NCBI GenBank assembly: GCA_003144275.1
Contig: NJBF01000009.1
Coordinates: 7,653 to 39,652, forward strand
Source of the DNA: Candidatus Heimdallarchaeota archaeon B3_Heim
Lineage (GTDB): Archaea > Asgardarchaeota > Heimdallarchaeia > Hodarchaeales > Hodarchaeaceae
Direction of reading: 5' to 3'
DNA length: 32,000 nt
The notes under the pieces are model-generated. The model saw nothing but the letters and a program-made list of their open reading frames with translations. It did no database searches and was not told where the DNA came from. This document shows positions 11,230 through 28,568 of the stretch, piece by piece. The first letter of the stretch is position 1. Every line of letters starts with the position of its first letter. The translations under genes and the position numbers were made by a program.

Positions 11230-11588
11230 CATAATCATTTTTGTCCGACAAGGCAATATTTCTCGTATTCGCAGCCCTCTCTCTCACAATCTTAAAAGGC
11301 CTCCCTCCCTTACTTCTTCAACCCCGAGGTGATGACAAAAAAATATACATAATTCTTAGGTCATATTCCCTTGTAACTACGTTAGACGAGTTACCCGTCA
11401 AAGGCAAGAGAAGAATGGCCCAATCTGGTGGAAATTCTGAAGTGTTTGGGAAATCGCAAGAAGATCTGATTCAAGTAATCCCAATGGATAGCATACATTC
11501 TCTTGTTGCTAACCTGCCGGATAGCGGATGTGTGACTCATCCAGTCCAGAACTATTCTCTAAATAGTTGTCTGACAAATTTAGTCATG
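11230..11588 (+). mobile_element. 359-bp non-autonomous miniature relative (MITE-like, copy A) of the TnpB element at 27158-28568
   Basis: Left end 11230-11251 is 18/22 identical to 27158-27179. Right end 11567-11588 is 20/22 identical to 28547-28568. Internal 11370-11405 is 30/36 identical to tnpB 27904-27939, and 11516-11546 is 29/31 identical to 28488-28518. Confidence 0.85.
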
Positions 11589-11689
11589 AGCTTGTTATCA
11601 TTGAAGGAGAAAGGATGATAAACTTTTTATTTAGAGAATTTTCACGAAAATACCAAAGAAATACCAATTTCTAAGCTCGAGGATTTAAA

Positions 11690-21217: not shown

Positions 21218-21455
21218 TTTATAGGCTCCTATCTGCGAAATAATAGATTAAATCTGAATGGATATTGGGTATGAGATGAAGAACTAGATATAATTAGGCC
21301 ATAAATAACCATTTTTTTAAAGAATTCGATATCCAATATCAATGGAATTAGCGGTGGAATTTCGTAGAATTGCATTATATTGGTTAACTAAATTAATGAT
21401 TCATAAATTTCTGATTGTTTGGATCAAGAATTATAAGCGTTTCTGGAATCACTCC

Positions 21456-21675
21456 CTCGTAACTGCGTTAGACGAGTTACCAGTCAAAAGCGAAGGGGGT
21501 AAAGCCAGTGGTTTTTGAAAATCGAGAAATCAAGCAAGAATGCCACTCCTATAGTAACAAGAAGTCCCTCGAAAACTAATTCTTCAGTCGAATTGGTTTT
21601 TTCCGGAATAGCAGACCCGTGACTCATCCTGTCCAGAACGAGGTTTTGTTGCTTTGTATGACAAATATAGTCATG
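21456..21675 (+). mobile_element. Second miniature TnpB-element relative (copy B); right end intact, left end not recognisable
   Basis: 21456-21491 is 32/36 identical to copy A and 28/36 to tnpB. It carries GTGACTCATCCTGTCCAGAAC at 21619, and its right end 21654-21675 is 19/22 identical to 28547-28568. Confidence 0.75.
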
Positions 21676-27157: not shown

Positions 27158-28568
27158 CATGATCAAATTTGTCGGACAAGTAAAAAAATTGAGGTTGAAA
27201 AAAGGCAAGTCATTTTCGTTTTCGGGGACCTCTCTCTGGTACAAGGTTAAATACAAGAAAAACAGTCCAATAAATGGGAATGCGAGCCAAAAAACAGACA
27301 CACCCACAACTGACAATAAGAATCCAAATGAAATCAAAGCCCATTTTTGTGGATTTGTGTACACGAGCCAAAAACTTGTATAATAGAGCTACCTACCAGG
27401 TGCGACAAGAATTTTTTGCCACAGGAAACTGGTTGCAGTATACAACTCTTTATCATCAACTAAAGCATGAACCAGTCTATTTGGCACTAAAAGAAATCTC
27501 TGATAGCTATCTCCCTCAACAAGTCCTCCGCCAGGTGGAACAAACCTGGAGAAGTTATTTTAATGCAATGAAAGTCTGGAAAAAAGAACCCAGTAAGTTT
27601 CTTGGTCAGCCTCGTCTTCCAGGCTATAAAGCAAAAAATGGCCTTCATGTGCTTAGCTTTCCACGACCCCGTGTCCGAATCCGAGGAACAGAGGTATTAT
27701 TTGCACGGAATTTAATGGCTCGTGGATTTCCCTCGTTTCCAGTGGGAAATCTCCCTGTTTCTAGAAAAACCTGTACGGGTGCTAGATTAGTGCCGTTTTA
27801 TGATCGATTTGTGGTTGAAATTCTGTATGAAACCGAAGTAAAGTCGTTATCCTCATTTAAAGAATCACCTAGAGCTATTGGTATAGATCTTGGGATTACT
27901 AACCTCGTAGCTACGTCAGACGGCTTACTCGTCAAAGGCGGGGTGGTAAAAACCGTCAATCAATGGTACAACAAGCAATTAGCCTATTTTAAATCACTCG
28001 CAAAAAAACACAATCAACAACATAATACACGTCGAATGCAACGGATGCATCGTGTCCGCGCAAATAAGATCAGTGATTATTTCCATCAAACCTCTCGAAC
28101 AATTATTAATCACTGTTTACAGAAAAATATTCACACCCTTGTTGTTGGCTATAATTCCTTTTGGAAACAGCATTGTAATTTGGGAAAACGAACAAACCAA
28201 TCATTCGTCCAAATACCCTTTTTTAAATTACTTCATATGCTTGAATATAAAGCTAAATTAGTGGGTATATCCGTTATTCGTGTCTCAGAAGCATATACTT
28301 CTCAACAGTGTAGTGATTGTGGTATAATTGATAAATGTAACCGAAGATCGCGAGGATTGTACCATTGTCGTTCCTGTGGCCTTCGTCTTAACGCCGATCA
28401 CAATGCCGCCATTAATATTCTTCAGCGTTCATCTCTTGATAAACAAGTAGTCCCTTCGGTCAGTTCAAGCTCTATTTGTTCTGATCAGCCGGATAGGGGA
28501 TGTGTGACTCATCCTGTCGTGACTCAAAAAGTTTAGTATTCTTTTTTTGTCCGACAAATCTAGTCATG
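27158..28568 (+). mobile_element. 1411-bp solo-TnpB insertion element (IS200/IS605 superfamily, IS1341-like organisation; no tnpA)
   Basis: A single tnpB ORF bounded by 23-bp imperfect inverted ends: 27157-27179 versus the reverse complement of 28547-28569, 20/23 identical. Boundaries are supported by where homology to copies A and B stops. Confidence 0.85.
27274..28536 (+). CDS. tnpB: TnpB RNA-guided endonuclease with rearranged RuvC-II site
   Basis: N-terminal OrfB HTH (KNLYN...), RuvC-I AIGIDLG, VVGYN..WKQ in place of the canonical E, alternative E in RVSEAYTS, CSDC/CRSC zinc finger and RuvC-III NADHNAAINI. Confidence 0.96.
   Translation: MGMRAKKQTHPQLTIRIQMKSKPIFVDLCTRAKNLYNRATYQVRQEFFATGNWLQYTTLYHQLKHEPVYLALKEISDSYLPQQVLRQVEQTWRSYFNAMKVWKKEPSKFLGQPRLPGYKAKNGLHVLSFPRPRVRIRGTEVLFARNLMARGFPSFPVGNLPVSRKTCTGARLVPFYDRFVVEILYETEVKSLSSFKESPRAIGIDLGITNLVATSDGLLVKGGVVKTVNQWYNKQLAYFKSLAKKHNQQHNTRRMQRMHRVRANKISDYFHQTSRTIINHCLQKNIHTLVVGYNSFWKQHCNLGKRTNQSFVQIPFFKLLHMLEYKAKLVGISVIRVSEAYTSQQCSDCGIIDKCNRRSRGLYHCRSCGLRLNADHNAAINILQRSSLDKQVVPSVSSSSICSDQPDRGCVTHPVVTQKV

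Follow-up and report, generated by a model that had tools for sequence, protein, structure and literature searches.

Copies A and B, two loci in the window (the whole 32,000-nt stretch of DNA analysed here), are members of a family of non-autonomous mini-transposons descended from a 1.4-kb tnpB-only element, and these minis carry a 32-nt block that caps a stem of about 16 pairs, which folds from the plus strand and covaries. The pattern of silent sites in full-length tnpB genes indicates that the block is an older element overlapping the coding sequence, which was retained in the minis and then freed from coding constraint. On balance we favour the view that it is an old cis-acting RNA module, overlapping tnpB codons and improved after its release from coding, which probably serves as an accessory 5′ domain of the omegaRNA precursor. 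The loci are of a known kind, namely PATE-like elements and standalone omegaRNAs, and since guide-RNA-only mini-transposons have already been described they are in themselves ordinary. What is unusual is that silent sites are frozen in seven species and that an island has been kept while its surroundings were deleted.

A family of mini-transposons descended from a tnpB element

The features of the window are as follows:

11230..11588, plus strand: copy A, a complete 359-bp A-type mini-transposon (genome BLAST, alignment of ~25 copies, unrelated flanks)
11230..11251, plus strand: left terminal repeat of A, CATAATCA..TTGTCCGACAA, mirroring the right end and kept in 47 full copies
11291..11299, plus strand: TATA-like box CTTAAAAGG of A (conservation profile), homologous to the CTTATAAGAG box upstream of tnpB
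11326..11335, plus strand: GAGGTGATGA, relic of the tnpB Shine-Dalgarno and start codon (comparison with tnpB left ends)
11373..11404, plus strand: 32-nt block of A, made up of hairpin X and an invariant tail
11373..11394, plus strand: hairpin X of A, GTAACT-A-CGT-TAG-ACG-AGTTAC, within the 32-nt block
11395..11404, plus strand: invariant tail CCGTCAAAGG of A, within the 32-nt block
11472..11588, plus strand: omegaRNA scaffold and right end of A, CAAGTAATCCC ... GTGACTCATCC ... TTGTCTGACAAATTTAGTCATG, homologous to the 3′ 117 nt of tnpB elements
21459..21490, plus strand: block of copy B, a B-type mini
21558..21675, plus strand: omegaRNA scaffold and right end of B (sequence comparison)
27158..28568, plus strand: full-size 1411-bp tnpB-only element, with the same mirrored ends as the minis
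27274..28536, plus strand: tnpB gene, 420 aa, with matches to Pfam OrfB_IS605 and the Cas12f1-like TNB and with TnpB and Cas12f as PDB relatives
27907..27938, plus strand: block in tnpB, codons about 212-222 (V-A-T-S-D-G-L-L-V-K-G), just after the RuvC-I aspartate
28444..28568, plus strand: omegaRNA scaffold over the tnpB 3′ end and right end (second synonymous-constraint peak, 0.89-0.93; alignment and fold)

Genome BLAST combined with a motif scan located 31 copies of the block in the genome, six of them in tnpB genes and 25 in short elements, and alignment with flanks included showed the short elements to be discrete units of 355-368 bp with unrelated flanks. These minis, 24-25 copies in number, are spread over 20 contigs in unrelated flanking DNA. 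Read in order, copy A consists of the left end, the promoter/start relic, the stem-block domain, a linker, the omegaRNA scaffold and the right end, and segment mapping against the 1.42-kb tnpB element traces it to element positions 1-28, about 65-115, 762-820 and 1303-1424. Left and right ends alike are homologous to their counterparts in the full element, mini positions 1-28 and about 243-361 matching element positions 1-28 and 1303-1424. The minis thus keep both ends, the promoter/start region, an internal island of 36-53 nt and the 117-nt omegaRNA scaffold; the island is homologous to the RuvC-I region and the 32-nt block is its core. Mirrored repeats, based on an 11-nt palindrome, form their ends, and CATG stands at either junction (left CATGATCA..TTGTC-N-GACAA, right TTGTCTGACAAATTTAGTCATG). 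Homology among copies stops on one side at the left terminal repeat (11230 in A) and on the other at ...GTCATG, the transposon right end. Copy B has no recognisable left end, and therefore appears to be decayed or truncated upstream of about 21440.

The TATA-like box of A is presumed to be the promoter of the mini transcript, and the guide of copy A would be the flank from 11589 onward. The Shine-Dalgarno/ATG relic is highly conserved, yet no conserved open reading frame follows it. The original prediction had described A and B as stand-alone RNA loci, and they are indeed gene-less, with an omegaRNA scaffold and a guide that would come from the flank, but they are more exactly internally deleted mini-transposons of a family with both ends. 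It had also placed an omegaRNA over the tnpB 3′ end, with the guide taken from flanking DNA; a constraint peak at codons 396-420 and the stop of homology at GTCATG bear this out.

Scaffold-core loci in the genome number 35, comprising 24 minis, five full elements and six remnants or contig edges, and none of the 35 is a multi-copy derivative that lacks the island. The distance from island to scaffold core is 152-153 nt in 24 of 24 minis and 591 nt in the five full elements. Measured from the start of GTAACT to GTGACTCATCC, the spacing is 156-160 nt across 47 full mini copies; in the window, copy A has 159 nt (11373 to 11532) and copy B has 160 nt (21459 to 21619), and in tnpB it is 597 nt from the start of the block (27907 to 28504). 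The 1-nt difference between A and B is as predicted, although the predicted values of 135 and 136 nt were taken from another reference point. In A the segment with homology to the tnpB 3′ scaffold follows 68 nt downstream of the block. Minis are present in five other species of the same Hodarchaeales genus, and among the 48 distinct mini copies of the six species the 32-nt block hardly varies. The flanks of the block are only ~65-75% identical between subfamilies and species, while the block stays at about 97%. The block pattern was found in eight of 400 genomes of the phylum, all of one genus, with 0 matches for a reversed control pattern; a metagenome scan added one further locus only, and a scan of genome collections returned only Hodarchaeota/Heimdallarchaeota MAGs. 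The conservation of the block and its spacing go far beyond chance.

It is useful to set these loci beside known systems. Standalone omegaRNAs act in trans (Altae-Tran et al. 2021, according to the summary in PMC10691335), and the PATE-like elements of Geobacillus stearothermophilus carry omegaRNAs (Meers et al., PMC10055086). Like them, the minis are gene-less, multi-copy and equipped with both ends of a tnpB-bearing IS, and they keep the scaffold, with a guide from the flank and TnpB presumably supplied in trans. They differ in carrying the RuvC-I island, a feature not mentioned in the descriptions of PATE-like elements and standalone omegaRNAs that we found. Further, the ends of the minis are mirrored and inverted-repeat-like, unlike the asymmetric hairpins of IS200/IS605 PATEs, and PATEs in the strict sense go with a Y1 TnpA of IS200/IS605 type, whereas Y1_Tnp (PF01797) has no match in the 94%-complete genome assembly. 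IS607 elements are described as having no terminal inverted repeats (PMC6188088); here the ends are mirrored, and no serine-recombinase TnpA with an N-terminal MerR-like DNA-binding domain was found in the genome. With neither a Y1 TnpA nor an IS607-type TnpA in the assembly, a cognate transposase was not found there. The only Resolvase-domain gene of the genome encodes a Hin-type recombinase beside a reverse transcriptase, and this single serine recombinase/resolvase was rejected as the cognate transposase because it is unrelated. Symmetrical ends around tnpB and an Asgard host are shared with the inverted-terminal-repeat TnpB elements that have DDE (IS630-type) transposases and with the Asgard aCas1-linked TnpBs (Altae-Tran et al. 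2023, PMC10691335).

Silent sites and inherited changes in the block

Direct reading of the window, comparing the 36-mers at 11370-11405 (A), 21456-21491 (B) and 27904-27939 (tnpB), confirmed the original prediction that five common substitutions (G>A, C>T, G>A, C>G and T>C) set A and B apart from the tnpB of the window. Through three of the five, GTAGCT...GCTTAC becomes GTAACT...AGTTAC around CGT-TAG-ACG; S-D-G (TCA GAC GGC) becomes L-D-E, so that the perfecting of the stem and the breaking of the protein consensus were both correctly called. The stem change is new in A and B only in part. GTAACT is present in five of the six tnpB copies of the genome, which share about 70% nucleotide identity among themselves, and in 12 of 18 close tnpB genes; it is therefore the usual tnpB state, and the window's tnpB, with GTAGCT and the Ala variant, falls in a minority class. 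AGTTAC, which needs a Gly to Glu change, occurs in none of the 18 aligned tnpB genes and in none of 20 distinct tnpB-type blocks. The C-to-G change falls in a Gly codon with a free third base (GGC, GGG and GGA in the 18 genes, GGT in one further copy), and TCA to TTA and CTC to CCC are, again, mini-specific. Going by their distribution in tnpB, the three stem-perfecting changes divide into one that was inherited, one that varies within tnpB and one that is new. Simple inheritance from a tnpB already carrying both arms thus accounts for GTAACT, and fails for the AGTTAC arm as this is absent from tnpB. The consistently different versions of the block held by tnpB and by the minis also argue that there has been no gene conversion between them.

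The age of the block is best judged from silent sites. In a codon alignment of 18 tnpB genes of at least 55% amino-acid identity from seven species, read in 12-codon windows, synonymous-codon identity reaches 0.93 at codons 211-222 against a background of 0.50 (sd 0.07, max 0.69), a z of 6.1. This equals the value at the omegaRNA-overlapping 3′ end (0.89-0.93, with its peak at codons 396-420). The codons CTC, GTA, ACG, TCA, CTC, GTC, AAA, GGC and GGG are each fixed in at least 17 of the 18 genes, and at the adjacent four-fold sites Gly207 and Val224 all four codons are used. Exceptions within codons 211-223 are the Ala/Thr site, single-gene variants at 214, 216 and 220, the third base of Gly217 and three Leu218 variants. 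The third base of Gly217 is the one freely varying silent site and it faces C5 of the hairpin, which means that what tnpB conserves is the primary sequence and not the hairpin. The block region of tnpB is likewise no more stable than synonymous-codon shuffles of it (z -0.4 to -0.9, with -1.3 for the omegaRNA region). Fixation of silent sites amid free four-fold sites argues for a nucleotide-level function that is older than the minis. The derivation of the block from RuvC-I codons was correctly predicted, the block matching codons just after the RuvC-I aspartate, but the idea that a hairpin was exapted from those codons has the direction wrong, since the silent-site constraint is already there in tnpB (0.93 against 0.50). 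The hairpin is an inherited module lying over coding sequence, more than a chance palindrome and not a new invention.

A second tnpB family of the same genus, at 35-45% identity, shows no more than a slight rise in silent-site identity at the corresponding place (0.73 against 0.56), and its minis in this genome are simple deletion products that join left end to right end and carry no island. It follows that the stem-block module is specific to the first family and is not generally needed.

Folding of the stem-block domain and the scaffold

In the minis the block is enclosed by a stem, P1, which in the two copies of the window lies as follows:

11359..11420, plus strand: stem P1 of A, GGTCAT..TTCCCTTG with CAAGAGAA..ATGGCC, enclosing the block (RNAfold, in nearly all copies)
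21443..21508, plus strand: stem P1 of B, CTGG..CTCCCTCG with CGAAGGGGG..CCAG, together with the block (fold and pair counts)

The A-type stem pairs GGUCAU..UUCCCUUG with CAAGAGAA..AUGACC, the B-type stem pairs CUGG..CUCCCUCG with CGAGGGAG..CCAG, and one divergent mini forms a perfect 12-bp stem of different sequence. Across the mini alignment P1 has 16 pairs, 11 of them changed on both sides. Its covariation is 0.186, compared with 0.135 in shuffles (0 of 500 reach the observed value) and 0.06-0.10 in slid controls, and 85% of its cells are paired, compared with 31-43% when the partners are slid. Outside two fixed columns G-U pairs outnumber A-C pairs by 57 to 16, from which we infer that the folding strand is the plus strand, the sense of tnpB and of the omegaRNA. 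Local folds of stem plus hairpin in the minis range from -16 to -30 kcal/mol. Hairpin X itself is a different matter, as its eight pairs are invariant and covariation is therefore uninformative either way; the same is true of an alternative small hairpin, GACG/CGUC, proposed by RNAalifold. Single changes in hairpin X do occur in divergent copies and are a mix of wobble-preserving and disruptive ones. The earlier suggestion of selection on RNA structure and length accordingly holds for P1, which covaries, and for the tightly kept spacing and length, but does not extend to hairpin X, which gives no covariation.

The scaffold was folded from 52 3′ segments of minis and tnpB elements, giving a consensus of 25 pairs of which 13 have compensatory changes. 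It includes an invariant GUGACU : AGUCAU pairing, and AGUCAU is the last stretch before the transposon end, next to the guide. The block helix GUAACU/AGUUAC is a near copy of this scaffold helix and their strands could cross-pair, a likeness that makes mimicry or competition possible. For the window as a whole only a tRNA reaches the gathering score in Rfam 15, and for copy A and the tnpB element the hits, none with an E value under 0.24, fall far below gathering score.

In its overall layout the scaffold resembles that of ISDra2, where nucleotides -5 to -3 and a segment further upstream are brought together in a pseudoknot (Nakagawa et al. 2023, PMC10097598) and a longer omegaRNA precursor of about 230 nt has a 5′ half that is disordered and dispensable for cleavage (PMC10097598). 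Both systems have a scaffold of about 116-130 nt that extends over the tnpB 3′ end, and in both a helix ties the nucleotides immediately before the guide to sequence further upstream; the stem-block domain begins 229 nt before the right end, much as the ~230-nt precursor would have it. The two differ in that there is no sequence similarity and no Rfam match, and in that the 5′ domain of the minis is their best conserved part outside the scaffold core.

Several known motifs were considered for the stem-block domain and set aside. A box C/D k-turn (GUGAUGA with an upstream CUGA) would have a 1-nt bulge only and a geometry that, by eye, does not fit, and a relic of the tnpB Shine-Dalgarno and ATG accounts better for this sequence. 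Nor does the domain, by eye, look like a bulge-helix-bulge splice motif or an H/ACA guide RNA, and a permissive Rfam scan of copy A gave no ribozyme or H/ACA family.

Possible functions of the stem-block domain

In the mechanism that we favour, the block would be an old cis-acting element of the transposon transcript, sharing its bases with codons in tnpB. On loss of the coding constraint in the minis, two changes (GGC to GAG) would have completed the local hairpin. The retained promoter would then give a mini RNA of roughly 300 nt, consisting of a leader, the stem-block domain, the linker, the omegaRNA scaffold and a flank-read guide, and TnpB made from full-size copies would use this RNA in trans. 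The stem-block domain would be an accessory 5′ module, most likely a binding or folding element for maturation, stability or loading of the omegaRNA, and GUAACU/AGUUAC could mimic or compete with the guide-proximal GUGACU/AGUCAU. An accessory RNA role is suggested by conservation, by the covariation of P1, by the strand asymmetry and by the position downstream of the retained promoter. Against it, hairpin X shows no covariation and several divergent copies carry single changes which break it. Two comparisons also count against it, the 5′ half of the ISDra2 omegaRNA being dispensable and the minis of the second family doing without the island.

The block could instead act at the level of DNA, as an internal binding site for a transposase or host protein, perhaps a degenerate third terminal repeat, needed in cis for mobilisation. 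Such a site would be expected in all proliferating minis, where the block is indeed found, and would be kept in primary sequence at paired and unpaired positions alike, as is the case. The centre of the tnpB block, CGTCAGACG, moreover has the GTC-N-GAC core of both terminal palindromes (TTGTC-N-GACAA), CGTAACTA-C-GTCAGAC, set by eye against the reverse-complemented right end, agrees with it at 15 of 19 aligned bases if a single gap of 4 nt is allowed, and the block and the left terminal repeat rank as the two best complements to the right end. Yet the minis all have GTTAGAC or GTGAGAC, so that the core is broken where it would matter, and a double-stranded DNA site does not predict a flanking stem that covaries with plus-strand G-U pairs; both observations weaken this reading. 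Its spacing is unlike that of real ends, the likeness to the terminal repeats is within chance over 1.4 kb, and the genome offers no Y1 TnpA and a sole serine recombinase that is a Hin-type resolvase beside a reverse transcriptase. We consider a DNA-level role unlikely. A quite unlikely alternative within RNA is that the block regulates the scaffold by pairing with the GUGACU loop, the right-end palindrome and the terminal AGUCAUG, keeping the guide RNA inactive in the way proposed for AmaTnpB, with the mini hairpin tuning or neutralising this effect. AGUUAC can pair with the GUGACU loop and GUAACU with the terminal AGUCAU. Of about 390 windows along each mRNA, one overlapping the block is the best scaffold complement in 10 of 17 full tnpB mRNAs (-30 to -34 kcal/mol against -16 +/- 4), and in the minis the block ranks top in 20 of 47 copies and is where mean duplex energy has its minimum. 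These ranks come from related copies and are not independent, and much of the tnpB signal stems from a G-rich sequence downstream of the block that A-type minis lack. Duplexes of the block only are not robustly above dinucleotide shuffles (p 0.012-0.57), the local stem and hairpin of the minis (-16 to -30 kcal/mol) should win over long-range pairing, and as both partners are invariant there is no covariation between them. There is a precedent, for this reading and for the accessory module alike, in AmaTnpB, where an internal region of the tnpB mRNA modulates the RNP and is inhibitory (Nety et al. 2023, PMC10278001). The block resembles that region as a segment of tnpB coding sequence beside a RuvC motif, with possible complementarity to the scaffold, and would likewise imply a second function at the RNA level. 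It differs in that the AmaTnpB region adjoins RuvC-II and is known from an in vitro assay, whereas the block adjoins RuvC-I and is known from silent sites and retention in minis, its complementarity to the scaffold being statistically weak.

That the block has no function of its own seems improbable to us. It would then be a relic of a founder mini, conserved through recent spread, gene conversion, mutational bias or codon preference, and the same diagnostic substitutions in all minis do point to a single origin, in line with a hairpin X that does not covary and a tnpB folding energy that is not significant. Recent spread would not be expected to leave flanks diverged to about 65-75% identity around a block that is about 97% identical, nor would bias or codon preference in an AT-rich genome be expected to hold CTC, GTA, ACG, TCA, CTC, GTC, GGC and GGG invariant amid free four-fold sites. 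The different versions kept by tnpB and minis speak against conversion, and an island kept between two deletions is not expected by chance. Finally, the minis might encode a small protein in the tnpB frame and conserve the block as coding sequence. In the A1 subfamily this frame is open over nearly the whole element (in the window as a 125-codon ORF at 11241-11618), and the Shine-Dalgarno/ATG relic is conserved. In the multi-copy B-type and C67-type subfamilies, on the other hand, the frame is interrupted by several stops, including one within the block. In addition, the long ORF and the conserved ATG are in different frames, conservation of the block extends to each of the three codon positions and Pfam gives no match. 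On account of the stops in multi-copy subfamilies we rejected this reading as very improbable and judge the open frame of A1 to be a relic.

To return to the accessory RNA module, the block would be a second non-coding element of the transposon besides the omegaRNA scaffold, 32 nt long, 600 nt upstream and within codons of the catalytic domain. If it controls guide maturation or nuclease loading, it would offer a new handle on TnpB regulation and would reveal how guides without a nuclease gene of their own vie for one supplied by other loci. Caution would also be called for when TnpB genes are codon-optimised for genome editing, as has been noted before with AmaTnpB. A bolder version has the stem-block as an undescribed OMEGA regulatory module common to the nuclease mRNA and its dependent minis, with a helix that would mimic the guide-proximal pseudoknot; we think this unlikely. 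Were it true, the mimicry could serve to bring TnpB to the precursor or to switch the scaffold from an active to an inactive fold and back, and a Fanzor-like TnpB, belonging to the lineage of archaea nearest to eukaryotes, would have had its coding sequence moulded by selection at the RNA level. The nuclease itself has a rearranged catalytic glutamate, typical of Fanzor-related TnpBs, and its host is a Hodarchaeales archaeon.

The RuvC-II glutamate of the window TnpB

Glycine occupies the position of the canonical RuvC-II glutamate in the window tnpB (27274-28536) and in all of its close tnpB copies, and at this site the TnpB residues VVGYN stand opposite MEDL of Cas12f in the alignment. A glutamate is located instead six residues ahead of the first CxxC (SEAYTSQQCSDC). 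A "rearranged RuvC-II glutamate" pattern, given as a regular expression, has been used as a criterion defining Fanzor-related TnpBs (PMC10711439). The combination of glycine at the canonical site and glutamate before the CxxC fits this pattern. The feature is carried here by an Asgard TnpB.

Conserved and variable sequence in the mini-transposons

The following features were located in the window, where copy A is one of the gene-less mini-transposons (minis) derived from the tnpB-only element.

11326-11335: GAGGTGATGA, the tnpB Shine-Dalgarno and ATG, found at the equivalent position in all minis
11373-11378 with 11389-11394: helix GUAACU/AGUUAC of the conserved 32-nt block
11532-11537 with 11582-11587: guide-proximal helix GUGACU/AGUCAU of the omegaRNA scaffold
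11230-11251 and 11566-11588: terminal regions of copy A
27158-27180 and 28546-28568: terminal regions of the tnpB element

Although the minis are gene-less, GAGGTGATGA ranks among their best conserved motifs. The 14-codon ORF after it terminates, in several subfamilies, at the UAA within GUAACU, the start of the block. The block helix closely resembles the guide-proximal helix of the scaffold, and the four strands of the two helices could exchange partners.

In the A1 subfamily the tnpB frame is open over nearly the entire element, comprising 125 codons in copy A (window 11241-11618), and the same frame is also open in at least seven further copies; in other mini subfamilies it carries stops. 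So long an open frame is unexpected for AT-rich DNA. The frame may have persisted as a relic; alternatively, its openness may mean that in-frame insertion into host genes is tolerated.

At the element termini, the centre base of the right-end palindrome is nearly always U/T (TTGTCTGACAA) and that of the left-end palindrome is mostly C. The window tnpB element departs from both: its left-end centre is G and its right-end centre is C.

Related and unrelated loci elsewhere in the genome

Further loci were found on contigs of the source assembly (G000).

C57:96043-96189: "super-mini", 146 bp
C54:20198-20637, C64:459-895 and C68:1445-1792: minis of a second tnpB family, ~450 bp
C2:5532-7731 (locus L089): Hin-type serine recombinase, 183 aa, with a neighbouring reverse-transcriptase-like gene

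Of an A-type element the super-mini retains only terminal sequence, ~94 nt on the left and 52 nt on the right, and it is single-copy, which is consistent with spread requiring both the scaffold and the island, the internal tnpB-derived piece containing the block. The second tnpB family is distantly related, with elements of ~1.65 kb in at least seven copies, and its minis consist of left and right ends joined by a single deletion, without an internal island. At L089 the recombinase gene is convergent with a gene encoding a reverse-transcriptase-like protein (416 aa) that has a YADD motif, the two genes lying 8 bp apart; the recombinase is unrelated to the TnpB elements.
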